Numbered from the stretch's first letter, positions 32,799 through 56,800 are shown. The stretch: DNA of 57,968 nucleotides from Fidelibacterota bacterium (GCA_046861385.1 JBHHTW010000013.1:1-57968); one strand, 5' to 3'. The notes: generated by a model from the letters alone, not told the origin. Program-made: numbers and translations.

Positions 32799-33032
32799 AT
32801 TGAACTATTTATGATGACTATAAAAATAATAAGTAAGAATACAAATACATGAATAATTTAGTTACCAACTTGGACCCTTTATGAGAAAACATATTTATAA
32901 GTACTGGTGCCGTAATAATATTGGACTGGGGTATTATAACGCTGTAAAATTGGTTAAACGAAAATATGTAATTGATGAATATTACATTTTACAGACTTAA
33001 ACTTTATCGTGGTTAGCAATCCAAATATAAAT

Positions 33033-33650
33033 ATGATTCGTACAATAAAATACAAAGCCGGTGAAATAATCCGACAAAAAAACGCTCATGTATATATACT
33101 ACATTTCATTTTTTGTTTATTGATTAGTTGCGCACCGTCAATTAAGGAGCTTTCAGAAACAGATCCTGAAGCTGTTATCAACAGGAAAAACGAATTACTT
33201 GCCGGCAGCTCTGTATCGAAAGAAGTAAAAACGGCGGTGATTAATGCCCATAATAAAATAGGCAATGAGGCATTAAGGCGGGAGGACTTAGAGGAAGCTG
33301 AAAAACAGTTCAATGAATCGTTGTTGTTAGATAATAAAAATAAACAAGCACATTACGGTTTAGCAATGATTAAAGGACTTCGCCGATTCAAGAAAGGAAG
33401 TAAGTCGGCACTATGGGAAGCCATGGAGAATTTTGGAAAAGCGGCCTTTTTTGACCCGGCAAAGGGAGACCCGCACTACTGGATGGGACGCACATATGAG
33501 AAAAAAGATGATGGAGATTTTGACCTTATAATTGAAGCATATGAAAAAGCATTAGGATTGCCTCTTCCAGACCCCTTGAAACAAGATGCTCAAAATAGAT
33601 TAGAATTAGTAAAAAAACACCAAAAAACCTTAGAGGATTTTTGGAACTAG
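33033..33650 (+). CDS. TPR-repeat lipoprotein
   Basis: Lipobox-like 'LLISC'; TPR-like helices ('AHYGLA', 'HYWMGRTYE', 'AYEKAL'); start uncertain (33009 or 33033). Confidence 0.7.
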   Translation: MIRTIKYKAGEIIRQKNAHVYILHFIFCLLISCAPSIKELSETDPEAVINRKNELLAGSSVSKEVKTAVINAHNKIGNEALRREDLEEAEKQFNESLLLDNKNKQAHYGLAMIKGLRRFKKGSKSALWEAMENFGKAAFFDPAKGDPHYWMGRTYEKKDDGDFDLIIEAYEKALGLPLPDPLKQDAQNRLELVKKHQKTLEDFWN

Positions 33651-33836: not shown

Positions 33837-33866
33837 TTGACACTTGATAAAAGATGGAAGTAAACT
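33837..33866 (+). promoter_or_regulatory. Candidate sigma70 promoter of the motor-like operon (TTGACA-18-TAAACT)
   Basis: Consensus -35 at 33837-33842, -10-like at 33861-33866, GAGG RBS before ATG 33919. Confidence 0.5.
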
Positions 33867-33918
33867 TGTCTGTCCAAGGTAGACATTAGCCTTTGATATT
33901 CTTAACCGAGGTAAGTAA

Positions 33919-35079
33919 ATGAATAAAAAATCGCTAATAAGATATGCTATTCTTAGCCTATTTCTTATTTTATGTAATACAATTCTTTTTGCGAAAGATT
34001 ATAAAGTAAGCGGAACTTTAGTCGATGCTAATGAAAATAAAATTGGCGGTGCAACCGTTCTGCTTCTCACGCCAGACGGCGTTGAATCTCAGCGAACCAA
34101 CACGTCAAAACCGCGTATGGGCATGGGGGGCGGAAGTTTCAAATTTAAAGATGTTCTTCCTGGGGACTACGCCCTGGAAGTAGATGCCGGAGCCAAAGGA
34201 TCTATAAATACACCCATAACAGTCACGGATACCGATGTTGAAGATATCGCACTGGTGTTATCCGTCAGCGATTCAAATACTGAAGAAGAATCCCCCACTA
34301 ATATCACCAGCGTTGTAACGGTACCGGAAGAGGCGGTTGAATCCGGAAGTTCCCCTGAATATGTGGCGACTGAGATCAGTTTTGAATTGAAAAAGTTAGG
34401 CGCTGAAATCAAACACTTAAACTCTGAATTGGAGGATCTCAAAGCGTTAAGTAAAATGTGGGTAAATCCTCTATCCATTTATTCCAAAGAAATTATCCTG
34501 CAAAATGGAAGCACCGTTTTCGGAAAAATTGTCTATCAGGACGAAGAAACACTTAAAGTAGAAACATTAGTAGGCTATTTAATCATTGAGAGAAAAAAGG
34601 TGGTTAGAGTAATCGATAATATTGTGTCAGAAGAAACTCAGGAATACGTTCCAGAGCAAATCAGAGACAGTTACTCTCCTCCTCCGATGCCAAAACTGGC
34701 AGAACCCAAGTATACTTCTGCAGATCCGCTTAATCGCAAAGCGGGAAAAAAATATTCTGCAAATTGTGTATTAGTTGGAAACATCAGTGAAAGCAAAGAC
34801 AATCAGGGCGCCATCATTTTCACGGGAGAGGTTAAAAATATCGGTGGACGCCGGGCAGATTTTGTAAAGGTTGATTTTGTTTTCCGTAAAAACTGGAGCG
34901 GTGAGACCAAAACACTTACCACGTTTGTCCGAGGAACTTACCACACTTTTGATTCTGGAATTACAACTGACGCGACGCTTCTTCCGGGCTCAAACGGGGC
35001 ATTCGAACTTTTTATCCCCAACGATTTTGGTTCATTTATAGGCTATTCTTATGTCATAGATTGGGAGGAATACCAGTAG
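33919..35079 (+). CDS. Secreted multidomain protein: carboxypeptidase-regulatory-like beta domain, coiled coil, small beta domain, FxLYD-like C-terminal domain
   Basis: Signal peptide; 'VSGTLVD..GATV.L..G.FKF.DV.PGDY.LEV'; heptads 'LKKLGAEIKHLNSELEDLKAL'; 'ILQNGSTVFGKIV'; 'GEVKNIG'. Confidence 0.65.
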   Translation: MNKKSLIRYAILSLFLILCNTILFAKDYKVSGTLVDANENKIGGATVLLLTPDGVESQRTNTSKPRMGMGGGSFKFKDVLPGDYALEVDAGAKGSINTPITVTDTDVEDIALVLSVSDSNTEEESPTNITSVVTVPEEAVESGSSPEYVATEISFELKKLGAEIKHLNSELEDLKALSKMWVNPLSIYSKEIILQNGSTVFGKIVYQDEETLKVETLVGYLIIERKKVVRVIDNIVSEETQEYVPEQIRDSYSPPPMPKLAEPKYTSADPLNRKAGKKYSANCVLVGNISESKDNQGAIIFTGEVKNIGGRRADFVKVDFVFRKNWSGETKTLTTFVRGTYHTFDSGITTDATLLPGSNGAFELFIPNDFGSFIGYSYVIDWEEYQ

Positions 35080-35969
35080 TGAAGGCACTGCAAAGTTCAC
35101 GTTGGCTTTTATATTATATAAGTGCTGGAATTATTTTTTCCACCCCTTTAATTGCTCAACGGCAGACATCATCACTCTCCGAAATATTTTTATTGGATCT
35201 AGGAATAGTTATTGAGCCTGAAACAGGTTCAGAAACATATTCCCGCCTTATAGAGACCCCGTCTCGAGAAGTAAATTTTAGGATTAAAAAGGTTCATAGC
35301 GGGTCTGTTTATATGGCAGCATCCGATGAATTATTAAGTGCAATTGAACGGATTAATGTTCGTATTTCTGATATGGAGACATCTTTTAAAAATGAACTGA
35401 TGGCGCTAAGGGCTGAAAACAAAGAGTTAAAAACTGTATTAACGAACTATCAATCAATCAATAACGAACCTAAAAAACCCATTATAGTGGCAGCGCCCGC
35501 CCCCCCTTCTCCAGAAAATGACATATTAATTGATCCATTACCCGAAGTGGCCAGTATACATATCGAACCCCTTTCTCCCGATAAATCTTTTAATCAGCGG
35601 ACATACATGGCAGGCGTTTTTGCATATCAGAGGGAAGACTTTGCGTCTGCTTTGAAATATTTTGCGAAGTTACATTTGGAATTAGCATCATTGGAAACAA
35701 TTGATAATGTAATGTACTGGACAGCGGATGCGTATCAACAAATCCATAATGATCAAAAAGCGCTTGAAATATTAGACAAATTAATAGAAAATCAAAATTC
35801 TTATCGTCTTGATGATGCGTTGGTAAAAAAAGGATTGCTGTATAAAAAAATCGGGCAATTAGATTTAGCAATGCAAGCATTCAGCCGGGTGGTAAAAGAG
35901 TATCCCAACAGTGAATATACTCGCTTGGCAAGTCTGGAACTAAAACGAGTGGAGATGGCTTTACAGTGA
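35079..35969 (+). CDS. Secreted coiled-coil + TPR protein (CpoB/YbgF-like layout)
   Basis: GTG at 35079 overlaps upstream TAG with GGGAGG RBS; signal peptide; coiled coil; Pro linker; 'MYWTADAY', 'DDALVKKG', 'F.RVV.EYP.S'. Confidence 0.75.
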   Translation: MKALQSSRWLLYYISAGIIFSTPLIAQRQTSSLSEIFLLDLGIVIEPETGSETYSRLIETPSREVNFRIKKVHSGSVYMAASDELLSAIERINVRISDMETSFKNELMALRAENKELKTVLTNYQSINNEPKKPIIVAAPAPPSPENDILIDPLPEVASIHIEPLSPDKSFNQRTYMAGVFAYQREDFASALKYFAKLHLELASLETIDNVMYWTADAYQQIHNDQKALEILDKLIENQNSYRLDDALVKKGLLYKKIGQLDLAMQAFSRVVKEYPNSEYTRLASLELKRVEMALQ

Positions 35970-37369
35970 GAAAAGTTAATTATAGTTTTATATCAATATT
36001 ATTGCTAATTACATCCTTATTGTTTGGAGCTACACGCGTGGCATATACACGCCCGGGTTTTATGATGAAAATTCCATCATCAAGCGTTCAGAAAGCGCCC
36101 TATTTATTCCGTACTGGTTTTGGGACAGAATTGCACAATTTTAATCCGTTTAATTCCGCCCAGGGTATTTATTTTGATATGGAACTTGGGAAAAACTTCA
36201 CATTTGGTTTTTCATCTGTACAAACAGCCGATACAACGGCGCTTGCTTTGCTGGGAACAACCGGATACACTCCTCCTGTAGAATTTGGATTTCACATACA
36301 GCAACGAGTCTACACTTATAATAATATTTCTCTTTCAATTGGTCTCCAAGACATCGTATTTCAAAACGCTGAAAGCGGCGGGTTAAGCCTTAACCCCGAG
36401 GAACTTTCCTTTTTTGCTGTCGTCAGCAGCGAGAAAAATCTCGGGAAATATCATTTAAGTACCTTTATGGGTTTTGGCTCTGGAGGTTTTTCTCCAGCGG
36501 ACACACTTGTTGATACAACAACCGCGATCACTAGTACAGCATCGAACAATACGACAACCCAGGCAGGTGTTTTTATGGGGTTAATAATGAACACGCCATA
36601 CTTGGAAAAATGGGGTGGTATTGATATTGTGGGTGAATTTGATGGTACAGGCATCAATGTGGGACTCCGCATCCCCCTTACCTCGGATTATCGCCTGAAC
36701 CTTGGGTTCACCCACATAGAAAAACTTCCAGATTTCAAAACCCGTTATTGGGAAGGGCATCCAGGGGTCACCCTCGGCTTTGATATGGCAGTTCCAAAAA
36801 CAGGACGCACTCCATCGTCAGAGGGCTTTGGAGGACCGTCGCCCCTTCCCGGCTCACAATTAAAACTTCCGGGAACCGGTCAATATGAATCACTCTCTTC
36901 GTCAGCGGATTCAACATTAGCGCTTGCAGATTATGCGGTTCATACTGTCCGAGACTCCATGACGATGTTGAAAAACGAAATGCGCAACCTGATGGTTAAC
37001 TTGGCTTCTATCCAACAGCAATCTCAATTTTTAGAGGATTCATTATTGGCAATGAAACTGAATCGTAATGTAGATGAAAAAAACATGAACGAAGCCATGC
37101 GGCATTTGTCTCGGTCGTTAAGATATTTTTATTCCGGGGATTACAGAGCAGCCTTACAAGAGGTGGAATCTGCTTTGGACTTAAACCCGAATCTGGCTTT
37201 AGCCTATGCCCGTCGAGGATCTATATACTATAAACTTGGAGATATTCAACGAGCAACCATCAACTGGAATCTAGCATTGCGCATGGATCCCGAATATGAT
37301 GATGTCAGAAACATTTTAAAAGCCCTACACGAAAACCGTTTAAAATCGACGAGTGTAGTAGAGGAGTAA
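35966..37369 (+). CDS. Probable outer-membrane beta-barrel (YjbH/GfcD-like) fused to coiled coil and C-terminal TPR
   Basis: Signal peptide; alternating beta-strands, 'SLSIGLQDI', 'GEFDGTGINVGLR'; C-terminal TPRs 'ALDLNPNLALAYARRGSIYYKLGD...ALRMDP'. Confidence 0.65.
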   Translation: MRKVNYSFISILLLITSLLFGATRVAYTRPGFMMKIPSSSVQKAPYLFRTGFGTELHNFNPFNSAQGIYFDMELGKNFTFGFSSVQTADTTALALLGTTGYTPPVEFGFHIQQRVYTYNNISLSIGLQDIVFQNAESGGLSLNPEELSFFAVVSSEKNLGKYHLSTFMGFGSGGFSPADTLVDTTTAITSTASNNTTTQAGVFMGLIMNTPYLEKWGGIDIVGEFDGTGINVGLRIPLTSDYRLNLGFTHIEKLPDFKTRYWEGHPGVTLGFDMAVPKTGRTPSSEGFGGPSPLPGSQLKLPGTGQYESLSSSADSTLALADYAVHTVRDSMTMLKNEMRNLMVNLASIQQQSQFLEDSLLAMKLNRNVDEKNMNEAMRHLSRSLRYFYSGDYRAALQEVESALDLNPNLALAYARRGSIYYKLGDIQRATINWNLALRMDPEYDDVRNILKALHENRLKSTSVVEE

Positions 37370-37373
37370 ATAG

Positions 37374-38156
37374 ATGGATATTGCAACACTAATAGGAATA
37401 ATACTTGGTTTAGGCTCTATTTTCAGCGGAATATTTCTTGCTGCATCGTCTGCAAATGCCGGTATGGGAGGTTTCGTATCACCTTCAAGCTTTGCGATTG
37501 TTGTGGGAGGAATGATTGCCTCCGTTTCTGTCGCTTTCCCCTTATCCGATGTTTTACAGCTGGGAGCGGCAATGGGTGCGGTGCTGAAAGGTGGAAAACT
37601 GAAACTGGGCACTGTTGTCGATGATGCAGTAGTGACAGCTGAAGTGGGAAGAAAAGGAGCGGCTGAATTAGAAAAAGCATTAGATGGAGTAAAAAATCCA
37701 TTTTTTAAAGATGGCGTACAAATGGTAGTGGACGGTTATTCGTTGGATGAATTGACCGAGATTCTGGAAACCCGCATTGAGTATAGGGAGATTCGCGAAA
37801 AAACACAAGCCGGGTTATTTAAATCGATGGGTACCATGGCGCCCGCCTGGGGGATGATAGGAACACTGATTGGGTTGGTAATTATGTTATCTGGTTTTGG
37901 CGGTGAAGGCGGAGCAGATGCGCTTGGTCCCGGTATGTCAGCAGCATTGATTACTACATTCTATGGCGCTGTTTTAGCGAATTTGTTTTTTCTACCCATG
38001 AGTGAAAAATTAAATACAAGAATTAGTTTTACCAGCACAATGCAAGCGATGCTTGTTGAAGCAGCGCGATTAATCCATCAGAAGAAGCACCCGTTAATTG
38101 TTCGGGAAAAATTAAATTCCTTTATTCCTCCTAAGGAGTGGAAAAAAGAAGATTAA
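37374..38156 (+). CDS. motA: Flagellar-type stator A subunit (MotA/PomA/MotP)
   Basis: 'MDIATLIG', 'IVVGG', 'RKG..ELE', 'F.K.G.QMVVDG', 'APAWGMIGTLIGL', 'ALITTFYG..LAN'. Confidence 0.92.
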   Translation: MDIATLIGIILGLGSIFSGIFLAASSANAGMGGFVSPSSFAIVVGGMIASVSVAFPLSDVLQLGAAMGAVLKGGKLKLGTVVDDAVVTAEVGRKGAAELEKALDGVKNPFFKDGVQMVVDGYSLDELTEILETRIEYREIREKTQAGLFKSMGTMAPAWGMIGTLIGLVIMLSGFGGEGGADALGPGMSAALITTFYGAVLANLFFLPMSEKLNTRISFTSTMQAMLVEAARLIHQKKHPLIVREKLNSFIPPKEWKKED

Positions 38157-38160
38157 TTAA

Positions 38161-38952
38161 ATGCCAAAAACAGCTAAAGAACAAAAAGCCTATAAAGCAG
38201 GCATCGCACAAGGAAAAACCCTTGTAGACGAAGGTCTACCCGGGTGGTTTGGAACTTTTGCTGATATGATGACGCTCTTGTTTGCGTTCTTCGTTCTGTT
38301 GGCGGCTATATCAACAATTGATCCTGTAAAGTTGCAGGAAATGGCTGATGCCATGGGTAAGTCTGTGGGTAGTAAGATAAAAAAGGAAAGCCAGGCTATG
38401 AACTTAGCGGACATTAAGAAAGCAGTTCAGGAAATGGTAAAAGAAATGCAAGAAGACTCTGAAACTGGAGAAACACCGGTTGAAGTTACTACCGGGCCAA
38501 AAGGAGTAACCATTGGAATTTCATCTGATATAAGCTTTGCCTCCGGATCAGCAAAAACAAAACCGCAGATTGTTGATATATTGACAAAAATTGTACCCAC
38601 CATAGAGAAGTCTTATTTCCAGATAGCTGTGGAGGGACATACAGACAATGAAAAACTACCTGAAGCATTACAAGTCAAATATCCCACAAATTGGGAGCTG
38701 TCGTCTGCCAGAGCATCGGCGGTTGTAAGAGAATTAATTAGACTGGGGGTGAACCCCACTCGATTGGAAGCAGTGGGTTATGGCGAATATGTTCCGCGGG
38801 ATCGCGCGTCACATGAGTTAATTACGGCTGAGGTGATAATGAAATATAATAACACACAGGACCAAAAATCCAGAAACAGGCGTGTGGAAATTACATTCCT
38901 GGCTCCAAGTTACAGCAGGGCCGGTGGAGATGAAAGCGAGAGCAATTCATAG
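38161..38952 (+). CDS. motB: Flagellar-type stator B subunit (MotB/PomB/MotS) with OmpA-like peptidoglycan-binding domain
   Basis: 'WFGTFADMMTLLFAFFVLL' with the ion-binding Asp; 'VEGHTDN', 'NWELSSARA', 'NRRVEI'. Confidence 0.92.
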   Translation: MPKTAKEQKAYKAGIAQGKTLVDEGLPGWFGTFADMMTLLFAFFVLLAAISTIDPVKLQEMADAMGKSVGSKIKKESQAMNLADIKKAVQEMVKEMQEDSETGETPVEVTTGPKGVTIGISSDISFASGSAKTKPQIVDILTKIVPTIEKSYFQIAVEGHTDNEKLPEALQVKYPTNWELSSARASAVVRELIRLGVNPTRLEAVGYGEYVPRDRASHELITAEVIMKYNNTQDQKSRNRRVEITFLAPSYSRAGGDESESNS

Positions 38953-38996
38953 CCAAATGAATTATGAGAAAAATTTCGATAAGCAAAGGAGCTATC

Positions 38997-40535
38997 ATGA
39001 GAAAAGTTAATATTTACTGTAGATCATTTATACTGGCAATATTTTGCCTCAGTGTGAGCTGGGGACAGAATAATAATTATTTAGCCCAGAAATTGATGGT
39101 TGAAAATGATTTGCGCCAGCGTATAACTGATGCTTTATCTAAAATTATTGATGACAGAAAATATGTTATCGATGTTAAAGCCGATATTGAAATCAGTGAT
39201 GGTACGGAAGAACAAATCACCATCATGGGAGAAGGAAAACAACCACCGTCAGGTCAAGTATTAGAAGATGTATCATCGGATTTACAACAATCATTAGAAA
39301 AGCCTTCTTCTGACAGATCTTCCGGTATATCAAGCGGCTTGCCTATCCCCGGATTCGAGTTTGAATCAGATGGTGGAGACGCTTACGCGGCAGAAACCGG
39401 AACCGAACCTGAAATGTTAACTCAAAGCACCCCTTCTTTAAGCTCCAGTCAAAAGAGTAATATATTATCAAGAACTGTAACGAGTCGCCGCCCATCGAAA
39501 GCAATAATTACAAAATTGGATATCAGTATTATTTTACAGGAAGGAGCCGCTCCGGAATTGATTGAAAATATACGTCAAGTCGTTATGGTTTCTTCCGGTT
39601 TTAATAGAGCCCGGGGCGATGCCTTAAGTATTATGACAGCTACGTTTAAAGAACGACGAGACGAAAAAACAGCGGAACAGATTTTATTAAAAAATATTGC
39701 TGAAAAACTTGAATCTCTGGAACAGCAGCAATCAGGCGACGGTTCTGTTCACTGGAAAGATGAACTGGATAGCTATAAAGCTCAGGAAGAAGAAAGGCGC
39801 GAGCAAGATAAATTGTATTTCCAGCAGCAACTCACTAATCTGGAATCAGAAGCAAGAAATCGTGCGTATCAAACAGAAAAAAGAGAGATGTTAAGACGTG
39901 ATTCCTTAAAACTTATAGAGTTAAACAAAGAAATCAATGACTTAAAATCAATGATGGCTTCTTCTGATGTTTCGGTGGATGAAGTTGGACAGGCCCAAAA
40001 TGCCATCGGTGAAAAAATCAGCGAGAAAGAATCGCTGGATGTAAAAATTGCTGAAAAACTGGCCATGCTTGATGCGGTTCAATCCGATCTTGATCGCAGT
40101 ATGGGCGGTGGGCCTTCTACAATGATGGTTGTTTTCGTTTCCCTTTTGGGTGCGTTGGTAATCGTCTTGGTTGTGGCGCTGATAATCATAATGATGGGAA
40201 ATAAACAAAAACAGCAACTTCCACCCCCGTGGATGTACCCACCTCGGCCTCGGAAAAAAAAAAGTAAAAATAAACCAGTGACACCCATTACCCAACCGGC
40301 GCCATCTGCACCTGCACCCCGACCTGTTGAAGATACTGCCGTTCTGCAAAGCGAAGTTTCTGATATGAAACAAGCCGTTGTCTCCATGAGCGTTGGGCAA
40401 CCGGGTACTGCCACAAGAATTGTAAAAGAATGGATGGAAGACGATGTGCCGCCGCCAGAACCGGAACCGGCTGCTCCTGTGGAAGCTGAAGAAGAAGATA
40501 GCGGTAAAAAGAAAAAGAAAAAAAAGAAAAAGTAA
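38997..40535 (+). CDS. Truncated FliF-like ring protein (signal peptide, RBM3/beta-collar, coiled coil, single TM, FliG-binding-type tail)
   Basis: 'VENDLRQRITDALSKII....VIDVKADI' and 'ITKLDISIIL...IRQVV..SSGFNRARGD.LSI...F' match the FliF C-terminal periplasmic domain; 'PGTATRIVKEWM' matches FliF tails; AAGGAG RBS before ATG 38997. Confidence 0.72.
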   Translation: MRKVNIYCRSFILAIFCLSVSWGQNNNYLAQKLMVENDLRQRITDALSKIIDDRKYVIDVKADIEISDGTEEQITIMGEGKQPPSGQVLEDVSSDLQQSLEKPSSDRSSGISSGLPIPGFEFESDGGDAYAAETGTEPEMLTQSTPSLSSSQKSNILSRTVTSRRPSKAIITKLDISIILQEGAAPELIENIRQVVMVSSGFNRARGDALSIMTATFKERRDEKTAEQILLKNIAEKLESLEQQQSGDGSVHWKDELDSYKAQEEERREQDKLYFQQQLTNLESEARNRAYQTEKREMLRRDSLKLIELNKEINDLKSMMASSDVSVDEVGQAQNAIGEKISEKESLDVKIAEKLAMLDAVQSDLDRSMGGGPSTMMVVFVSLLGALVIVLVVALIIIMMGNKQKQQLPPPWMYPPRPRKKKSKNKPVTPITQPAPSAPAPRPVEDTAVLQSEVSDMKQAVVSMSVGQPGTATRIVKEWMEDDVPPPEPEPAAPVEAEEEDSGKKKKKKKKK

Positions 40536-40544
40536 GGTAACAAT

Positions 40545-41477
40545 ATGATTACAGATTACAATAGACTTTCCGGTCTGCAAAAAGCAGCCGTTCTTTTCTC
40601 CGTTTTAGGTGAGGGGTTAGCTCTCTCTCTTGTTAAAGATCTTTCAAAGACTGAAATTCGAAAAGTACGAGCAGCGATGCGCGATTTGGATAATGTCTCA
40701 TTTTTAATAAAAAAACGAGTTATGGAAGAATTTTACTTCAGTTTTGTCAGTGAAAAATTTTATGATGAAAATTCTGACGAACCCAAAAAACCGTTCTCAT
40801 TTTTAGACGATATTACAGATGAACAATTATTTGCGCTCATTAAACCAGAATCTGCATCAGTGGCCGCCATTGTTTTGGCACAGATTCCGGGAGAAAGACG
40901 AATGAAAATTGTGGAGCGGTTCGATGCTATGTCAAAAGGTGAAATCATTATGGAAATGGGAAATCTAAAGGATATTCCACTTGAAGCGGTCGTAAGCGTT
41001 GCAACCGACCTAATGAAAAAATCCAAATTATTACCCAAAACAGTTGCTTTCTCCCGGGGCGGAGGAAAAGATATTGCTGACATTCTTGGCGGATTATCAT
41101 CGGAGGAAGAAAAATTATTTCTTGAAAATATTTCTCGAGAAAACCCGGAATTAGCAGATGATATTAAAAAATATCATTTGACCTGGGAGATCATATTCGA
41201 AGTATTACCCGACAGCACGTTACGCGATTTAATGAATTCTGTCGAACTGGATTCCATTGCCATGGCGCTGAAAGGAATGCCGGAAGACGTTGTGAATCGG
41301 GTGATCGAAAATCTACCGCAAAAGAAACAGGCTATGTATGAACCGGTTGAAGGGGCTGTTTCCAAGCGGGAAGTTGATAATGCAAGAAAACAAATTGTAT
41401 CCTCCGCGAAAAAAATGGAAAAAGACGGAGCTTTCAATCTGTCGGACTTAGTCGGCGGTGGAGACATGGTAGAATAA
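40545..41477 (+). CDS. fliG: FliG-like rotor protein (divergent)
   Basis: 'LSGLQKAAVL...LG', 'PFSFL', Gly-Gly linker 'RGGGKDIADIL', 'PELA..IK', 'A.ALKG', 'V...EV..A...I'. Confidence 0.88.
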   Translation: MITDYNRLSGLQKAAVLFSVLGEGLALSLVKDLSKTEIRKVRAAMRDLDNVSFLIKKRVMEEFYFSFVSEKFYDENSDEPKKPFSFLDDITDEQLFALIKPESASVAAIVLAQIPGERRMKIVERFDAMSKGEIIMEMGNLKDIPLEAVVSVATDLMKKSKLLPKTVAFSRGGGKDIADILGGLSSEEEKLFLENISRENPELADDIKKYHLTWEIIFEVLPDSTLRDLMNSVELDSIAMALKGMPEDVVNRVIENLPQKKQAMYEPVEGAVSKREVDNARKQIVSSAKKMEKDGAFNLSDLVGGGDMVE

Positions 41478-41502
41478 GATCTTTGTAGGATAAATTTATT
41501 AC

Positions 41503-41539
41503 AAACAGCCTTCGCTAATTGAGAGGGCTGTTTTATTTT
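41503..41539 (+). terminator. Intrinsic terminator closing the motor-like operon
   Basis: Stem AAACAGCCTTC/GAGGGCTGTTT (one G-U) followed by a T-rich tail. Confidence 0.7.
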
Positions 41540-41651
41540 CAGCCCGATGTTAAACGACATAAAAATTCTAACATAAACTTATATAAAGAAAGAGATGTAA
41601 GAACTTTCTTGGGACAGCGAAGAAATAGATACCTAATGCAAGGCGGGTAAA

Positions 41652-46814: not shown

Positions 46815-46850
46815 AATAAAAAAGCCCCGGAATATCGGGGCTTTTTTATT
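46815..46850. terminator. Bidirectional intrinsic terminator between sdhB and tonB
   Basis: Perfect 15-bp inverted repeat AATAAAAAAGCCCCG-gaatat-CGGGGCTTTTTTATT between convergent genes. Confidence 0.9.
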
Positions 46851-47463
46851 TAAGTCTAAAATTAACCGGGATTGAAATCCAAACCCCTACAGCACGTTCC
46901 CGCTGTTTCGCCGGTCTAAAACGTGTTCTTCGAATCGCTTCAATTGCGGCTTCGTCCAATCCGGTGTTTGGGATACCTTTTAAAATCGATGTTTCTTTTA
47001 CTCGTCCTTTTTTATCAACAAAAACCTGAACAATAACCGTTCCTTCGATGCCGGCTTCCTGGGCGATTTCCGGATATTTCGGGCGAATAGGCGATAACGG
47101 TTTTGGTGGGTCATCATAGGGAATGAATTTTACCTGCGGTCCTTCCGGCGGCGGCGGCGGCGCATCCCAAGCCTCAAAACTTTCTAAATCCGTTTCTTCA
47201 ATGGTTAGGTCATCCGCAAGGTCTTCAGACTCCGACTCAATCGGCACAGAAGGTCTTGCCGGAGGCGGGGGTAAATCAAATTGCTGTGTCTGAGGAATAT
47301 CAATCTGTTCGATGATAATTTGATTCGCATCTTCTAATACAACTGTTGTGAAACTTCGAGGAACAAACAGAAAACCAAATGTAATGATCAATATTCCAAC
47401 AAGCCCTGCAATCCTCACCGTTAAGGAATAGTTAAATTTCAGTTGGGGTGTATAATCGCTCAT
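46846..47463 (-). CDS. tonB: Energy transducer TonB
   Basis: N-terminal TM, Pro-rich linker, 'YPEIA..AGIEGTV.V...VD..G', 'F.PA'. Confidence 0.9.
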   Translation of the reverse strand: MSDYTPQLKFNYSLTVRIAGLVGILIITFGFLFVPRSFTTVVLEDANQIIIEQIDIPQTQQFDLPPPPARPSVPIESESEDLADDLTIEETDLESFEAWDAPPPPPEGPQVKFIPYDDPPKPLSPIRPKYPEIAQEAGIEGTVIVQVFVDKKGRVKETSILKGIPNTGLDEAAIEAIRRTRFRPAKQRERAVGVWISIPVNFRLK

Positions 47464-47466
47464 GAT

Positions 47467-47877
47467 TTAATTAACAGCTGTTTTCGTAGAATAGTTAAGC
47501 TTTAATGCATCAGCTTTCCGCAATTCATTGTGTATATTAGAAATAAGTCCCATTTTTGCAGATTTGTCTGCTTTTAGGGAGACGGTTAATAATGGGTCAG
47601 CTGAACGAATCTCATACATTACATGACGTACAGATTCTATATTATGCAATTTATCTTGAATGGATATCAAGCCTTTTTTATCCACAAAGACATGAGCAGT
47701 ATGACGTTTGGATTTTAATTTTTCAATACGTTTTGCCCGGGGTAATTCGACAGGCAAACCATCATATTCACGAAGAACGGTTGTGACCATAAAAAATATC
47801 AGCAGCATAAATATAATGTCCGGCATCGATGCCGTTGGGATGTCGCTTGAAATTTTCGTCTTACGTTGAACTTTCAT
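47467..47877 (-). CDS. exbD: ExbD/TolR family protein
   Basis: 'SMPDIIFMLLIFFMVTT', 'LKADK'. Confidence 0.9.
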   Translation of the reverse strand: MKVQRKTKISSDIPTASMPDIIFMLLIFFMVTTVLREYDGLPVELPRAKRIEKLKSKRHTAHVFVDKKGLISIQDKLHNIESVRHVMYEIRSADPLLTVSLKADKSAKMGLISNIHNELRKADALKLNYSTKTAVN

Positions 47878-48272
47878 TAGTCGGACTCAGCAATGGATAT
47901 TCGTTTTGCATTGGCCATTTTTAGCTGATCAATCACAGAAATATAGTCGCTATATTTTGTTTTTTCATGAGCCTTCACAGAAATAATCAGCTTATCATTT
48001 TCCGCAATTCTACGACGAATTTCCTTACTAATATCACTTATTCTTACAGGATCACGGCCCAAAAGAACATCGCCCTTTGAATTAATAAGACAATTTAGGA
48101 TATTGTCTTTCTTTATTTCTATCTCTTCACCCTCCGCGGGGAGTACGATACCCAACCCTTTATCCATATCTATCGTAGTTGTCACTAAGAAAAAAATGAG
48201 CAGAAGAAAGGCAATATCTGCCATGGAAGAAGTCGGGATTTCACCCCCTTTGAATCGACGCTTATTTTTCAT
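47877..48272 (-). CDS. exbD: ExbD/TolR family protein
   Basis: 'SMADIAFLLLIFFLVTT'. Confidence 0.9.
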   Translation of the reverse strand: MKNKRRFKGGEIPTSSMADIAFLLLIFFLVTTTIDMDKGLGIVLPAEGEEIEIKKDNILNCLINSKGDVLLGRDPVRISDISKEIRRRIAENDKLIISVKAHEKTKYSDYISVIDQLKMANAKRISIAESD

Positions 48273-48290
48273 TCGCTTTGATTCTCGAAA

Positions 48291-48908
48291 TTATTTATTT
48301 AATTGCATTTCATATAGTTTATCAACCAATTGGATTGAATGCTCCTCCATTTCCAAAACCAGTTTATCAATTCTGGAAACAAATAAGTTTTGAAAAATTT
48401 GGATAATCATTGCGACAATCAGACCAAAAGCAGTGGTTAACAATGCCTGTGAAATACCACCGGCAACAACAGCGGGTGAAATATCATCCGCAGCAGCAAT
48501 AGCATCAAAAGCAGAAATCATCCCGGCGACTGTACCTGTAAAACCAAGCATCGGAGCAATGGTAATAACAGCATTTAGCCAAATCATGTTTTTTTCAAGA
48601 AAAGACATTTCTAAGGAACCGGCGTTTTGAATTGCCTTTTCAACTTCTTCTAAACCTCTGTTAATTCGAGAAAGACCAGCATGAAAAATTTCAGCTACAG
48701 GACCGTTTGTTTTTTCACAAAGCTCCATGCAGGCTTTTTCACCCTCATTCTTCAATGTGTCATTAACATCATCGAAAAACTTTTGTGCATTAATTGATGA
48801 CATGATCAGTGAATAAAAACGCTCACCTGCAAAAGCAAGCCCAAAAATCAATGACAATAATATTGGCCACATAAAGGGACCACCATTTACGAAATATTCG
48901 ACTAGCAT
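48291..48908 (-). CDS. exbB: ExbB/TolQ proton channel protein
   Basis: 'GG.FMWPI', 'APMLGFTGTV.GMI', 'GISQALLTTAFGL'. Confidence 0.9.
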   Translation of the reverse strand: MLVEYFVNGGPFMWPILLSLIFGLAFAGERFYSLIMSSINAQKFFDDVNDTLKNEGEKACMELCEKTNGPVAEIFHAGLSRINRGLEEVEKAIQNAGSLEMSFLEKNMIWLNAVITIAPMLGFTGTVAGMISAFDAIAAADDISPAVVAGGISQALLTTAFGLIVAMIIQIFQNLFVSRIDKLVLEMEEHSIQLVDKLYEMQLNK

Positions 48909-51790: not shown

Positions 51791-53833
51791 ATGAAAAGTG
51801 GAATCATTTTTACCATTTTTCTTCATTTTGTACTCTATTCCGAGCATATGTTTGTAAAAGGCACATTTGATTTTGATCAAGATGGCAGGAGCGAAATATT
51901 GCTGTTTAATGAAAGCCGTCTTCGTTTTGTGGAAATAGATGACGAAGGTCAACATCAATTGCTTTGGGGACTGACTCCGGAATATTATTCCATTAAGGAT
52001 GCGTTTATAGTTGATTTACAAAACAATGGAATTAACGATTTAATTGTATTGACAGAATATTCTCCGGATTTCCTTTCGAAAAACACAGAATGGCTAAAAC
52101 TATTTTCCTGGAGCCAATCCCAATTTGAATTAGTTGATGTTGAATTAATCAAAAATAAATTGATGCATCCAAATAATGGTGATTATGAGTCAACCTCCAG
52201 AAGGCTTTCCATTGCCTTTGGGAATCCTTCCAGAACAGTTTTCTTTGTGCAGTTTAATGATGGCGGCACCACCGATACAATCAATGTTCAATTACCTCAA
52301 AGTTTACATAATGGCATTGGACATCTATTTGCGCGTTTTATGAATGTTGACGGCGAATCCCACTTGGCAGTGTTTTCCAACGAAGGTAATTTATTAAATA
52401 CTGGTTTGTTTAAATTGGAAAAGGAACCGGTGATCATCGCAGAAAAATCACTCCCATTGAATAACGCCACCAACTTACCTGGACCAGCCATTTATAAAAC
52501 CGATTTAGATGGAGATCACACAGACGAATTACAACTGCCGTTTATGAACGGAGTAGTACAAACTCTGGCTTTCGTGGACAATAATCTCACGTTGACTTTA
52601 AGTAAATTTAGCAGGAAAGAATTGTTTGTAGTTCCTGAGACCGCCTCCGCGGAAACGATCAATAACGTTTTAATATCCCGGGTAGAATCCGGATTAATGA
52701 GTCAGCGCATTTCCGACGGTGTAGAATTGGAATCTATTGTTATTATTCCCAATGACACCTTATATCTCGGTGATACCTTATTTTATAGGGCGGTTGCGGG
52801 TACCGGAAGCGGTTTTTATAGTTTTCACTGGTTAAGCCCTCCTCCTGTCGGAGCGCGTTTCGATCCTACAACCGGTCTGATAACATGGGCGCCTTCACGA
52901 AGCCAACTCGGAATTCATGAATTTAAATATTTTGCTGAAAAAAGCCTGAAAGATGAATTGATTTCAGATGTTGATCTTTTTGGAGATCGTTACCGCATGG
53001 TCCCCGTTATTGAGGAAAATGAACAAGTATATGCAGTGATCGTAAATGATACTGCAAAAACTCAAATTGTGTATAATCCGCCCAGAGATGAACCATATAT
53101 GATTATGGTTCAGACCACTGAAAAAAAAGAAGGTAAAAAACGATTTATCTTTAACGGGGTACCCTCTTTTCATGTAATAGTAAAAGAATTTCCACATCCA
53201 AATTATTTCCAGATTTCCCACTCAATTTCTGCAAATCTTGGTAGTGTGGAAAAAAATAAATCAGTAAACTTTTCTTATTCATCATCCAATCAAGATAGTA
53301 TCATAAATTTGATGAAGCTCATTATCAATCATGACCTTAATAAAAATACAATTCAAGCCCGAATAGAACCTTCATTGGATACGACAACTATCAGCTTGAA
53401 TCCGGAGAATTGGAAATCTGAATTGCAGACATATCCCGAGTATCATTTTAATGGATTTCCTGAGTCAATGCGCCTTGGAGAGTCTGACAAAGGTATTTCG
53501 TTATACGAAAATGAAAATAATCAAACATCCAATCAATCTTCTTTCATATCAATCCTGACTCCGAATGGAGGACACACACACACGATCTCTATCGAGATGT
53601 CAGAGATGGAATTATGGAATATTAGAGGAGATGTAACGGTAGACAGCTCCGGCGGGAAAAGAATCAGGACCTCAATGACGTTTTCCGGAGAATTTGATCT
53701 TTTGAGTGTAAGCGCAGAAACAAACGTTGAGATGGACTCTCTCAATCAAATAAGAGAAATGAAATTCAAGAGACTGGAATATTTAGGTGTTGAAAGTGTT
53801 GTTGTAGATTCCGGCGGAGCAGAAATGCAATGA
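51791..53833 (+). CDS. Secreted FG-GAP/VCBS-repeat protein with putative Ig (He_PIG/cadherin-like) domain
   Basis: 'DFDQDG..E', 'DL.NNGINDL', 'DLDGD.TDEL'; 'PP.GARFDPTTGLITWAP...QLG.H.F'. Confidence 0.7.
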   Translation: MKSGIIFTIFLHFVLYSEHMFVKGTFDFDQDGRSEILLFNESRLRFVEIDDEGQHQLLWGLTPEYYSIKDAFIVDLQNNGINDLIVLTEYSPDFLSKNTEWLKLFSWSQSQFELVDVELIKNKLMHPNNGDYESTSRRLSIAFGNPSRTVFFVQFNDGGTTDTINVQLPQSLHNGIGHLFARFMNVDGESHLAVFSNEGNLLNTGLFKLEKEPVIIAEKSLPLNNATNLPGPAIYKTDLDGDHTDELQLPFMNGVVQTLAFVDNNLTLTLSKFSRKELFVVPETASAETINNVLISRVESGLMSQRISDGVELESIVIIPNDTLYLGDTLFYRAVAGTGSGFYSFHWLSPPPVGARFDPTTGLITWAPSRSQLGIHEFKYFAEKSLKDELISDVDLFGDRYRMVPVIEENEQVYAVIVNDTAKTQIVYNPPRDEPYMIMVQTTEKKEGKKRFIFNGVPSFHVIVKEFPHPNYFQISHSISANLGSVEKNKSVNFSYSSSNQDSIINLMKLIINHDLNKNTIQARIEPSLDTTTISLNPENWKSELQTYPEYHFNGFPESMRLGESDKGISLYENENNQTSNQSSFISILTPNGGHTHTISIEMSEMELWNIRGDVTVDSSGGKRIRTSMTFSGEFDLLSVSAETNVEMDSLNQIREMKFKRLEYLGVESVVVDSGGAEMQ

Positions 53834-56800
53834 TGAAGATTATCATACGGTTTTTATTGATGTTCAGCCTTCTTTTTGGAGCAGACCTTAAAATTATTCA
53901 CATGGAAGGAACCTTCGATTTGGACCAGGACGGTCTTTTTGAATTTGGGGCGGTTGAGGTCGGCCGGGAAAATGGATATTCTATTTCCATGCTGAGATAT
54001 TATGAAATTGACGGAGACGGATATCAGCAGCTTAACTGGGAATTAGCAGCCCCGGATGGTCTTTTGGGTAATTTTGTTGGAATAAAACTCGGTGATCTAA
54101 ATGGCGACGGTATGCCGGAACTCATAACCGTTATGAATCTGACGGACGGAACAGAAGAGCAAATACTGCATCCAATTGTTTTTTATTATTCCTGGGATGG
54201 CGCCGGCTTCAGTGAAGAGCCTACCGGTTCACTAAATTTATCCGAGCAAAACACCTTTCTTCGCTGCCACAATTTTGTTTTACTGGATAGAGACAATGAC
54301 GATGACCAGGAATTACTGGTTTCCTTAGGCAGTCCCGTACGGGGCTTGGCGATTGTGGATATCAATAGGAATGGTGAATTGGAAATAACCACACGTTTGG
54401 AACCTGAATCGATGCGATTTGGATCGGGCTTTGTTTATGGTGGAGTGATTGACTTTAATCGCGATGGTTATGATGACATTATTAGTTTCAGCCCAGAAGG
54501 GAATGTGATGAAAGCACAGCCATTTTTAAATAAAAAAGGTGTTTTTATTGAATCAAAAGCTGTCGTTAAAACCATTCCAGGGATAAACAGTTTCATCAAT
54601 AATTCTATCACTTTAACCGATTGGGACAGTGATGGTTTTGCGGATGTTATCGTTCCTTTTCAGAGCGGTCATTTGGTTGCTCTCACGTTGTCCGATGCCG
54701 GTTTGGATATTGATGAAATTGACAATGACGCCGGTCCGCTCTCTGATGTGCGCGCGGCGGATTTTAATCATGACGGTTTTAGTGATTTACTATTGGTCTC
54801 TGGTGAGATGAATATGATTACCCTTTCATTCGGAGCAAAAACGCCGGATGAAAAAAGTGAAAAATATTTTACGCTTACGGTAGACTCTGCGGAAGTCCAG
54901 GTGTTTTCTACTCTTCCAATGATAACCAATAGAATATATTCCGGAACGTCAATTGCTTCCGGTTGGGATGGAGAAACCACATCTATCTTTTTGACCGATC
55001 TTGGTTTATCTCCTCCTGTGGAGCCACCTTCTGTGCAAGATACTTTGGTTGAACCTGTGGATCTCTTAGAACTATTTCCTGAAATCGTTGGCATGGATTT
55101 GGGGGGCAAGGGGATCAAACCCATCAAGTCTATAGGACAACCCCTTCCGGCTGGAATTCTTCCCAGGCACGTTTTACCCGTCGATCAGCTGTTTGTCTAT
55201 TCCATTCCGGAAGATGAAGCGGAAAAATTTTATAGTTTCCGTTGGTTGATACCACCGCCAAAAGGCATGTTTTTCCATTACGAAACACGATCTATTCAAT
55301 GGGTTCCGGACGGAGAACAATTAGGCGCGTACAAATTATCCTATCATGTCGAAATGAAAACCAGCGAAAAGGTGGAATTGGAATCTGTGGACGAAGATTC
55401 ATTATTAACTTATAAAGTAGTTCCACAGCTGGAGGGATATGATGAGAGATTGTGGATATACGTCAATGATCCACCGGAATTTATTTCGGAACCCATGGAA
55501 ACGGAATTTGTGGCACAATCTTTATTCACTTATCAACCGGTCATCAACGACAATAATTCCGATGCGAATATTCAGATAAATTTAGAAACAGGTCCTGACG
55601 GAATGGAAATGGATTCCTCCGGCGCCTTGTACTGGCAGACAGACAGCAGTCATGTGAATATTTATCATGTACGTTTAACTGCCACTGATGGCTTTGACAG
55701 AACAGTTCAGGAATTTCAATTATTTGCCCGTGCGGGCGTGAAAATACTTTCGGAACCGGATTCCATCATTCGGGTGAATGAATTGTTTAAATATCAGGTG
55801 GCTGTATGGCGGCCGGAACTGGACCAGGAATTAAAATACATCCTGCTTCATCACCCGGAAGGAATGTCATTATCTAAATCTGGATTGATTGAATGGACAC
55901 CGTCTGAAACACAAATTGATACACAGAATTTCGCTGTCATCGCGAACCACGGCGTTGCAGCTGATACACAGAACGTTGTTTTATATGTAAATCATCCGCC
56001 GATTGTAGAACGGGCGCCCCCATTAATGAATGTAGTAAATTTGGGATATGTATGGGATTTCCAGTTGGAAGTGACGGATCCCAATATGAATAATACGCTC
56101 ACATTCACCGCGATAGAGATGCCCGAAAGTATGCGTATGGACCCATTTACCGGTCGCCTCCGCTGGGAGCCCGCAAGAAACGAAATGGACTTTGGTCATT
56201 TAAAATTAGAGGTGGATGACGGATATGATGTCCGTACGATCGAGTCAGATTTCTTTATTAATTCTCCTATTAAAATTGTTTCCATCCCCTTGATGAAGGC
56301 AACAGTAGGAGAAGAATATAAATACAAAATTATGACAACAGATCTGAATAAAGGGACACTTTTACCCTATGATCATATTGTAAAATTGAACGATATAGAA
56401 AAAGCCAAAATATATTCTGTAAATATTGCTGACGATGTATATAAGGAAAATGTGGATCGATACGTTGGTGAGTGGAATGCCGCAGAGGAGGTTTATCTCA
56501 CTAGCCAGGGAGAAATGGAATCGGAAGAATTCAGCAGGTTAAACCTGAAGCATTATGTCCATTCAATCTTCTGGGAGGATGACCGGCTTGTGATTGTTAT
56601 TGAAGAAAAAGATGATAGGATCGTCAATATTAAGGATGTGTTGTGGGAGTTTTTCCAAGGCTCAAAAGGTAAACCGCCAAAAGTGATTGTTGAGCGCTTG
56701 AGTCCGGTACGATATACATTGGAGGAATTTCCCGATGGGATGGAAGTGGACGAGTTTAACGGCACTCTTCACTGGACTCCGGGAAAAGATCAATACGACA

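Follow-up and report, generated by a model that had tools for sequence, protein, structure and literature searches.

A seven-gene operon of Marinimicrobia encoding flagellar-type stator and rotor proteins: a candidate motor with a non-flagellar output

Genes of the operon

We analysed a 57,968-nucleotide stretch of DNA (JBHHTW010000013.1:1-57968, hereafter the window) from the genome of a Fidelibacterota bacterium (GCA_046861385.1), which comprises 2.43 Mb on 104 contigs and is 97.85% complete. The phylum goes by the names Marinimicrobia, SAR406, Neomarinimicrobiota and Fidelibacterota, and the first of these is used below. The subject of this study is an operon within the window in which genes for a flagellar-type stator and rotor follow three genes for exported proteins. 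ORF calling placed seven open reading frames (ORFs), here g1 to g7, on the + strand between 33919 and 41477, tightly packed with intergenic gaps of -19 to +11 nt, or of +44 nt with the g6 start at 38997 that other sources call. A first-pass annotation made from the sequence alone had described seven tightly packed or overlapping genes of the types listed here, a description that ORF calls, Pfam and fold searches confirmed (TPR, tetratricopeptide repeat; AF2, AlphaFold2; aa, amino acids).

33919..35079, + strand: g1, secreted protein of 386 aa with a signal peptide, beta domains and a coiled coil
35061..35969, + strand: g2, exported coiled-coil and TPR protein of CpoB/YbgF layout (TPR_6, 48.8 bits)
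35966..37369, + strand: g3, barrel-TPR protein of 467 aa (TPR_2, 36.6 bits; AF2 model)
37374..38156, + strand: g4, MotA/PomA-type stator A subunit of 260 aa (MotA_ExbB, 96.8 bits)
38161..38952, + strand: g5, MotB-type stator B subunit of 263 aa (MotB_plug, 56.3 bits; OmpA, 51.3 bits)
38964 (or 38997)..40535, + strand: g6, FliF-like rotor anchor of 512-523 aa (YscJ_FliF_C, 39.1 bits)
40545..41477, + strand: g7, FliG-like rotor protein of 310 aa with N, M and C domains (Pfam, PDB alignment)

The g4 protein aligned end to end with solved MotA/PomA chains (8ucs/6ysf, E 2.5e-36; 8brd/8bri, 8e-31), and the alignment took in the cytoplasmic part between transmembrane (TM) helices 2 and 3. Within the g4 family, R93 and P157 are invariant, K94 and E100 are near-invariant, and P208 is invariant or nearly so (alignment). 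The homologue alignment of g5 revealed a TM helix in which Asp35 is invariant, together with a plug and a peptidoglycan-binding domain of the OmpA-like type. Taken together, these comparisons establish g4 and g5 as a predicted MotA/MotB (PomAB-like) ion channel in which channel Asp, plug and peptidoglycan anchor are all retained. For the ion type, the best NCBIfam names were MotP and PomA, both far below their cut-offs; the stator proteins scored 171.9 against a cut-off of 394 for MotP and 145.4 against 283 for MotD. The accessible part of PMC12505986 defines the flagellar-type stators, its FIT group, by three features: the A subunit has a complete torque-generating domain in the cytoplasm, the B subunit has a plug, and the stator is associated with a flagellum. 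Both domains are present in g4/g5 (alignment, MotB_plug), and the genome searches described below found no flagellum with which the operon could be associated, such that its stator would be an exception to that definition.

The g7 protein matched FliG_N (64.8 bits), FliG_M (35.4 bits) and FliG_C (68.7 bits), each above its cut-off, scored 110.7 against a cut-off of 226.7 for the equivalog TIGR00207, and aligned with the FliG proteins of A. aeolicus and T. maritima (PDB 3hjl, 1lkv). At the position of T. maritima EHPQ, which we take to be the FliM-docking motif, g7 reads ESAS, and on this alignment it is without that presumed motif. The most conserved stretch of the protein, LPQKKQAMYEPVEG..KREVD.ARK, is near-invariant and aligns to the stator-facing C-terminal helix of T. 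maritima FliG, which marks g7 as a three-domain FliG with a stator-facing helix that is probably retained. Basic and acidic residues of this stretch lie at or beside the T. maritima positions, with no exact map to the stator-facing charges of E. coli FliG, namely K264, R281, D288, D289 and R297 (in part from the accessible part of PMC12505986, in part from general background). Homologues of g7 carry the source annotation 'flagellar motor switch protein FliG'.

The g6 protein begins with a cleavable-looking signal peptide, followed by a ring domain of the third ring-building motif (RBM3) type, which a disordered insert interrupts, and then by a coiled coil of ~150 residues. After the TM helix, a Pro-rich linker leads into the tail, which has two conserved helices and ends in poly-lysine. 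Pfam matched residues 58-228 to YscJ_FliF_C above its cut-off of 23.8 bits and returned no YscJ_FliF match, which would correspond to RBM1/RBM2; in contrast, the true FliF of a flagellated relative, G030, carries both Pfam domains. The TIGR00206 score was 22.8 bits against a cut-off of 129.75. In the AF2 model (mean predicted local distance difference test, pLDDT, 67), the ring domain runs helix, two strands, insert (79-155), two strands, helix and strand, and is followed by ~150 residues of coiled coil, the TM helix and two short tail helices. The insert, which is disordered in the model, occupies the position of the FliF collar and carries an invariant GLPIPGF motif (homologue alignment). 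The best 18 Foldseek matches were all FliF RBM3/collar rings (E 3e-7 to 1e-5, target-normalised TM-score up to 0.60), while a PDB sequence search with g6 gave nothing significant (best FliF, E = 0.1), so the likeness to RBM3 comes from the fold search only. Sequence and fold together establish that g6 has only the RBM3 domain of FliF, one TM helix and a conserved cytoplasmic tail. The first-pass annotation had seen a minimal core of stator, M-ring and rotor; stator and rotor were borne out, but an M-ring was not, as g6 is an RBM3 domain on a coiled-coil stalk that lacks RBM1 and RBM2.

The tail of g6 contains the conserved sequence VLQSE..MKQAVVSMSVGQP.TAT.IVKEW with a lysine run at its end (alignment). 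Complex prediction for this tail and the N-domain of g7, a modelling experiment suggested by the first-pass annotation, scored 0.44 compared to 0.01 for the best control, with a partner pLDDT of at least 62 and at least 87% of contacts in agreement between runs. The mark applied was reached by 58/80 solved complexes and 2/110 mismatched pairs; scores of 0.60 or below were obtained for only 7/80 solved complexes and for both of the mismatches that passed. Since FliF-tail:FliG structures have already been solved, the pass may merely reflect likeness to them, and the prediction gives weak support to contact between the g6 tail and the N-domain of g7. The extreme end of g6 (40440-40535) is acidic and proline-rich before 5 to 11 lysines, a composition common to 23/23 aligned homologues.

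Upstream of the motor genes, g1 encodes a protein whose signal peptide is followed by two variable segments, a CarboxypepD_reg-like beta-sandwich (Pfam, 31.5 bits, marginally below the cut-off of 32.3) and a linker, and then by a conserved coiled coil. Next comes a small beta domain, which a PPPMPKLAEP linker connects to the C-terminal beta domain, itself highly conserved (homologue alignment). All of its Atlas look-alikes were from Marinimicrobia, with no other phylum returned. The start codon of g2 is an uncertain call, and the protein scored 40.6 bits against TIGR02795 (tol_pal_ybgF; cut-off 90.1) and 17.1 against a cut-off of 383 for the CpoB model. Sequence and fold establish both g1 and g2 as exported coiled-coil proteins. 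The homologue alignment of g3 gives the order signal peptide, beta-barrel (~12 strands), linker, long helix and almost invariant TPR domain, and its AF2 model (pLDDT 58.5) places 12 strands within residues 46-277. Foldseek matches listed at ranks 1-50 were all transmembrane beta-barrels, nearly all of them outer-membrane proteins and two of them de novo designs; examples are FapF (3e-5), OmpT, OMPLA and one chain of 6h3i, a type 9 translocon entry. On this model, g3 carries a predicted outer-membrane barrel and a periplasmic TPR domain.

These envelope partners bring up the possibility that the operon encodes a non-rotating force transducer or tether like Tol-Pal or Ton, in which a FliG/FliF-like scaffold, fastened by g2 and g3 to the wall and outer membrane, is pulled or twisted by the stators, and which would serve outer-membrane tethering, constriction or integrity. 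The CpoB/YbgF layout of g2 with its weak TIGR02795 match, the combination of barrel and periplasmic TPR domain in g3, and the wall anchoring of MotB all fit such a device. Canonical Tol-Pal was also not detected, as TolB_N had 0 matches in the source genome, although this blank says little: the model was silent in the Bacteroides control as well and positive only in E. coli and Caulobacter. However, g4 is a full MotA/PomA protein with a FliG-facing cytoplasmic domain rather than a TolQ (TolQ model, E 0.0096), and the stretch aligned to the stator-facing helix is the most conserved part of g7, which fits a working rotor-stator interface. Furthermore, whole lineages lack the operon, which would not be expected of a core envelope system. 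We consider a tether, the leading alternative, unlikely, and prefer to read the operon as a rotor-stator machine.

Distribution, phylogeny and fused relatives

The source genome was searched for flagellar genes with profiles and with the proteins of G030. FHIPEP/FlhA and FliP had 0 matches in it (controls positive in 4/14), as did Flagellin_N, Flg_bbr_C and CheW, for each of which control genomes were positive, and FliG_C had one match only. Within the window, the first-pass annotation had noted an absence of other flagellar and che genes, and this held: a Pfam scan of 46 window ORFs of at least 90 aa found no flagellar or Che family apart from g4-g7, and shorter window ORFs were covered by the whole-genome tblastn. 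The tblastn queries were the 49 ORFs of a 40 kb contig stretch of G030 holding a complete flagellar cluster (fliE/F/G/H/I/J, flgD/E, motA/B, fliL/M/N/O/P/Q/R, flhB/A/F/G, fliA, rod genes, flgA/H/I, flgN/K/L, fliW and csrA), and they gave no flagellar structural match in the source genome. FliO, FliP, FliQ, FliR, FlhB and FlhA were without a match there, as were the rod, hook, FlgK and FlgL queries and the switch proteins FliM and FliN. Matches were obtained for generic paralogues (an ATP synthase subunit, a signal recognition particle GTPase, a ParA-like ATPase, sigma factors and similar proteins) and for motor queries, with fliG matching g7 at 20%, motB matching g5 at 33%, and motA matching a second MotA on contig C36 at 40%. 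Since the defining export, axial and switch parts were looked for and not found, the operon is not a flagellum. A full flagellar set elsewhere in the genome, which would have contradicted the first-pass annotation, was thus not found.

Two more sets of MotA and MotB (plug, OmpA) are present in the source genome with no rotor gene adjoining. One (C36:59575-61705, - strand, locus L038) consists of motA, motB and a 192-aa gene and neighbours a 687-aa protein with a type IX secretion system (T9SS) sorting domain; the other (C95:10145-12363, - strand, locus L039) combines a single motA with two motB-like genes. Flagellar MotA from G030 is 40% identical to the C36 copy compared to 34% for g4.

Conservation of the operon was assessed in a synteny set of 12 loci from 12 genomes in 11 families of the order. 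The genes g1, g3, g4, g5, g6 and g7 were collinear in 12/12 loci, and g2 was present in 10/12; in one locus (L024), g1 and g3 overlap by tblastn, leaving no space for g2. At the genomic level, this linkage upholds the idea, put forward in the first-pass annotation, that the motor core is joined to periplasmic and outer-membrane partners. Among 41 relatives, source genome included, 37 had a g7 match, although that of G039 was at only 20% and lay within its flagellar cluster; setting G039 aside leaves a full-length g7 homologue (51-91% identity) in 36/41. FlhA was above cut-off in 6/41, and 31 genomes had the operon FliG without an FlhA match. In a phylum sample of 301 genomes (180 of high quality, 104 genera), the g6 profile matched 197/301 genomes, 130/180 high-quality genomes and 85/104 genera, compared to 67/301 genomes for FlhA. 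Within the order, where the two tables were cross-tabulated by hand, g6 was found in 97/145 genomes, 88 of them without an FlhA match and 9 with FlhA, while 6 genomes had FlhA only. A phylum-wide hand count of ~154 genomes with g6 and without FlhA is not leaned on, since weak g6 matches outside the order could be true FliF. Gene order is thus conserved in genomes in which the export apparatus was not detected, as the first-pass annotation had anticipated.

In other genomes the operon and flagellar genes occur together. G030 has all seven operon genes on contig C46, and its flagellar cluster, on C5, includes separate copies of fliF, fliG, motA and motB; G011 has the operon (locus L027) together with FlhA, and operon and FlhA were both found in 10/10 genomes of family f21. 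For all seven genes, pN/pS (the ratio of nonsynonymous to synonymous differences per site) against two relatives was 0.10-0.50 with synonymous sites saturated, indicating purifying selection. Taken together, the operon is an independent, selected unit. Family f12 of the order, which comprises 30 streamlined genomes (~0.7-1.1 Mb), had the operon in 0/30, FlhA in 0/30 and SprA in 28/30.

These distributions bear on two explanations that tie the operon to flagella. It could be what remains of a lost flagellum, persisting through inertia or because of a minor role, and the frequency of FlhA in Marinimicrobia means that the ancestor may have been flagellated. However, the frames are intact, gene order is fixed across the phylum, pN/pS values are low as given above, the operon coexists in G030 with a complete flagellar cluster, its FliG falls in a separate clade (see below), g6 has lost RBM1/RBM2 and gained a coiled coil, and the motor genes are linked to three non-flagellar genes; a remnant is very improbable. 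Alternatively, the operon could provide a second motor or accessory for true flagella, as its presence together with FlhA in 9 genomes of the order and throughout f21 would allow. Against this, 88 of the 97 operon-bearing genomes of the order had no FlhA match and the source genome has no detected flagellar structural gene, such that we give an accessory role almost no credence.

It was also considered whether the operon energises the T9SS in place of GldL/GldM. The SprA family was present in 21/21 relatives and in 290/301 genomes of the phylum (source genome copy, C30:17527-23454), and GldM and GldL were above their cut-offs in 0/21 relatives, with one weak sub-cut-off GldL match in G030. These GldL/GldM blanks are no evidence of absence, however, as no control genome was above cut-off either: GldM_1st, TIGR03517 and TIGR03513 had no match above cut-off in the source genome, the 21 relatives or the controls, with GldM_1st sub-cut-off in Caulobacter. 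Since SprA is present in lineages without the operon, namely f12 and likewise f15 and f16, a role as T9SS energiser was lowered to highly unlikely.

The relationship of g7 to canonical FliG was examined by an exhaustive search, which returned 3694 proteins at E <=0.001. The full-length matches of ~310 aa that were looked up (35-58% identity) were from Marinimicrobia or the 'FCB group' where named; the exceptions were two nameless clusters and one member labelled Woesearchaeota. Many other matches were longer, at 570-720 aa, with a complete FliG making up the C-terminal half. The N-terminal half of these proteins combines a signal peptide with a g6-like domain, in which LPG and RGD motifs occur, and with a TM helix; a G.P...W motif resembling the g6 tail follows. 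By their domain order, these proteins are a natural fusion of both rotor genes. A maximum-likelihood FliG tree, proposed in the first-pass annotation, was built from 112 rows (LG+G4, unrooted, with supports from the Shimodaira-Hasegawa-like approximate likelihood-ratio test, SH-aLRT), which were drawn from g7 matches and hence biased. It placed 44 canonical rows, both Marinimicrobia flagellar FliG proteins included, on one side of a branch (SH-aLRT 98) and the operon FliG apart from them in a clade of 29 rows (support 99); 36/38 fused rows fell on the operon side, with a support of 92 that is not strong.

The genes around the fusions were compared with the operon. As the 38-row fusion alignment had no stretch conserved enough to serve as a query, smaller alignments were searched instead. 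Three fused loci labelled Deltaproteobacteria/Pseudomonadota (L040, L041 and L042) each have a protein with a g3-like TPR domain, then the fusion and then a 211-221 aa protein, and FlhA was found in 1/3 of these genomes. The ORF for the 211-221 aa protein (L040:3042-3677, L041:3174-3812, L042:11863-12528) is conserved and has no Pfam match. In the metagenome locus L049, consecutive genes encode the fusion, a 372-aa protein, a TPR protein, MotA and MotB. Atlas look-alike clusters of the L049 fusion, which are a lead only, were most commonly from Balneolota, Bdellovibrionota, Pseudomonadota, Elusimicrobiota and Bacteroidota. The 372-414-aa partner showed no relation to the g3 barrel in profile comparison (probability 0.5%). 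Its gene, which follows the fusion (L051:2833-4038, L049:2421-3539, L053, L054), matched FlgO below the cut-off (E 4e-4) in 1/2 scanned members. FlgO is an outer-membrane-linked flagellar protein of Vibrio.

Like the operon, the fused modules thus have the same periplasmic domain (LPG, RGD), TM helix, tail motif and full FliG, a partner with a g3-like TPR domain and, in L049, adjacent motAB. Unlike in the operon, anchor and FliG form one polypeptide and the long coiled coil is absent; no g1 homologue was found in them. The fusions, the gene order of L049 and, weakly, the complex prediction suggest that g6 and g7 act together. We consider the fused FliF-like::FliG-like modules of other phyla undescribed.

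A proposed envelope machine

We propose that the operon encodes a switchless, flagellum-independent, ion-driven, envelope-spanning rotor-stator machine, presumably rotating, with a non-flagellar output, and we hold this to be probable. The g6 protein would assemble as a ring through its RBM3 domain, and its tails would bear a ring of g7, such that flow of H+ or Na+ through wall-anchored g4/g5 units would turn the g6/g7 ring. Since FliM, FliN and CheW were not found and the FliM-docking motif is gone, rotation would be one-way only. Torque would be passed on by the coiled-coil stalks (~150 residues) and by the RBM3 ring, reaching g1-g3 at the wall and outer membrane, a coupling that would stand in for rod and hook. 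TPR domains bind short peptides, and since split and fused forms alike retain an LPG loop and a TPR partner, we propose the invariant GLPIPGF loop of g6 as the likely docking site for the TPR domains of g2 and g3. Among possible outputs, we rank first an action on outer-membrane or surface components, which would be moved or remodelled (surface motility, envelope and particle handling), then envelope tethering, and last secretion or uptake.

Several observations weigh against this proposal. Rotation, ring formation and every contact of g1-g3 are steps that we infer, the g3 model is of low confidence, and the meeting of the g6 tail with g7 is weakly supported. All four motor proteins are far below the NCBIfam equivalog cut-offs and, since none reaches its cut-off, are diverged relatives of the flagellar ones whose function may have drifted. 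Free rotation is also hard to picture if the ring is tied to the barrel through the TPR domain of g3 and the stators are fixed to the wall through MotB. The operon is dispensable, as it was not found in f12 (a ~1 Mb lineage) or in several other families. In the three Deltaproteobacteria/Pseudomonadota genomes with fusions, motAB is not adjacent to the fused rotor gene, with MotA-like genes elsewhere in 3/3. Lastly, the FlgD query from G030 matched 66 residues (E 6e-8) on contig C15 of the source genome, which we read as a probable shared Ig-like domain.

The proposed machine can be compared with systems that are already known. With the flagellar motor core (MotA5B2/PomA5B2, FliG ring and FliF MS-ring), the operon shares homologous MotA, MotB, FliG and the RBM3 of FliF; it keeps the fliF-fliG order, the channel Asp, the plug and the charged residues of MotA, and its g6 tail is predicted, weakly, to meet the FliG N-domain. 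In contrast with the flagellar motor, no export gate, rod, hook, filament, L/P rings, FliM/FliN or chemotaxis genes were detected in its genome. Its g6 differs from flagellar FliF in having no RBM1/RBM2 and in having a signal peptide, the coiled coil and the poly-lysine end, its g7 differs from flagellar FliG by loss of the FliM-docking motif, and its partners are instead a barrel-TPR protein, a CpoB-like protein and a secreted beta/coiled-coil protein. Tol-Pal with CpoB likewise combines an ion-driven motor of the MotA/TolQ family, a wall-binding OmpA-like domain and a periplasmic coiled-coil and TPR protein, but the operon pairs a MotA/PomA-type stator with FliG, and no TolA, TolB or Pal was found (search: TolB_N). 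The GldLM/PorLM and Agl-Glt motors use no FliG/FliF ring, and their periplasmic shaft is the B-type subunit itself. They share with the operon a motor of the MotAB/ExbBD superfamily, periplasmic coupling to the outer membrane and occurrence in non-flagellated bacteria (FCB group; general background and the accessible part of PMC8986121), although the GldL and GldM families were below cut-offs in the source genome and relatives, with no positive control.

No non-flagellar FliF/FliG/MotAB operon was described in the searchable full texts; subscription journals and supplements, which may list such genes, lay outside this search. One paper asks whether rotor parts have another function and describes no system there. 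We classify the operon as a motor of the flagellar rotor-stator type whose output is non-flagellar, one previously undescribed in the literature searched.

To our knowledge, FliG and FliF are known only as flagellar parts. If the proposal is true, the flagellar engine would be a module able to drive something else, and whether rotor and stator or the export apparatus came first in the origin of the motor would be a question testable in living organisms. SAR406 bacteria are among the most abundant groups of the deep ocean and of oxygen-minimum zones, and an envelope motor could bear on their particle encounters. Motility surveys that score fliG or motA can be misled by the operon; in one scheme, fliG, fliM and fliN are counted and 2/3 are required (accessible part of PMC10359470).

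A broader version of the proposal is that the SAR406 operon and the fused FliF::FliG modules are one ancient rotary envelope family, sister to all flagellar motors and not descended from them, in which a rotating coiled-coil cylinder and RBM3 ring replace the rod and drive outer-membrane partners. We regard this as speculative and distinctly unlikely. If true, it would provide a living rotor-stator core that works without a type III export apparatus, and abundant 'non-motile' deep-ocean SAR406 cells would have a mode of movement or surface transport not seen before.

Boundaries and neighbourhood of the operon

Three further features lie at the edges of the seven genes.

33009..33650, + strand: g0, small TPR protein of 213 aa (Pfam TPR_11, TPR_8)
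33837..33866, + strand: candidate sigma-70-like hexamers TTGACA-18-TAAACT (10/12 consensus matches)
41503..41540, + strand: intrinsic terminator, a hairpin at 41503-41533 followed by a U-rich run

The first-pass annotation had placed the operon between a sigma70 promoter and an intrinsic terminator, of which the terminator stood and the promoter did not. The terminator hairpin folds at -16.6 kcal/mol (z = -3.44), with 1/200 shuffles equally good; it was absent from the list of a simple terminator scan and was recovered by this folding test. In contrast, promoter-like sites occur at chance level in the region (27 found compared to 25.9 expected), so the candidate hexamers carry no statistical weight. 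A search of RNA sequencing runs with the whole operon listed none as containing it. A g0 homologue was found upstream of the operon in 6/12 related loci and in G030, at a distance of 1.7-2.2 kb from the operon in two of those loci, making g0 a possible eighth gene that is loosely linked.

The remaining genes of the window are housekeeping genes, including those for purine synthesis, succinate dehydrogenase, an exbB-exbD-exbD-tonB set and peptidases. The Ton-type set, with exbB, two exbD genes and tonB, lies at 46846-48908 on the - strand, 5 kb downstream of the operon, and its exbB is the fourth MotA/ExbB-family gene of the genome. A 1220-aa protein encoded at 53830-57492 on the + strand has FG-GAP, Big_9 and He_PIG Ig-like repeats and is probably a large surface protein.

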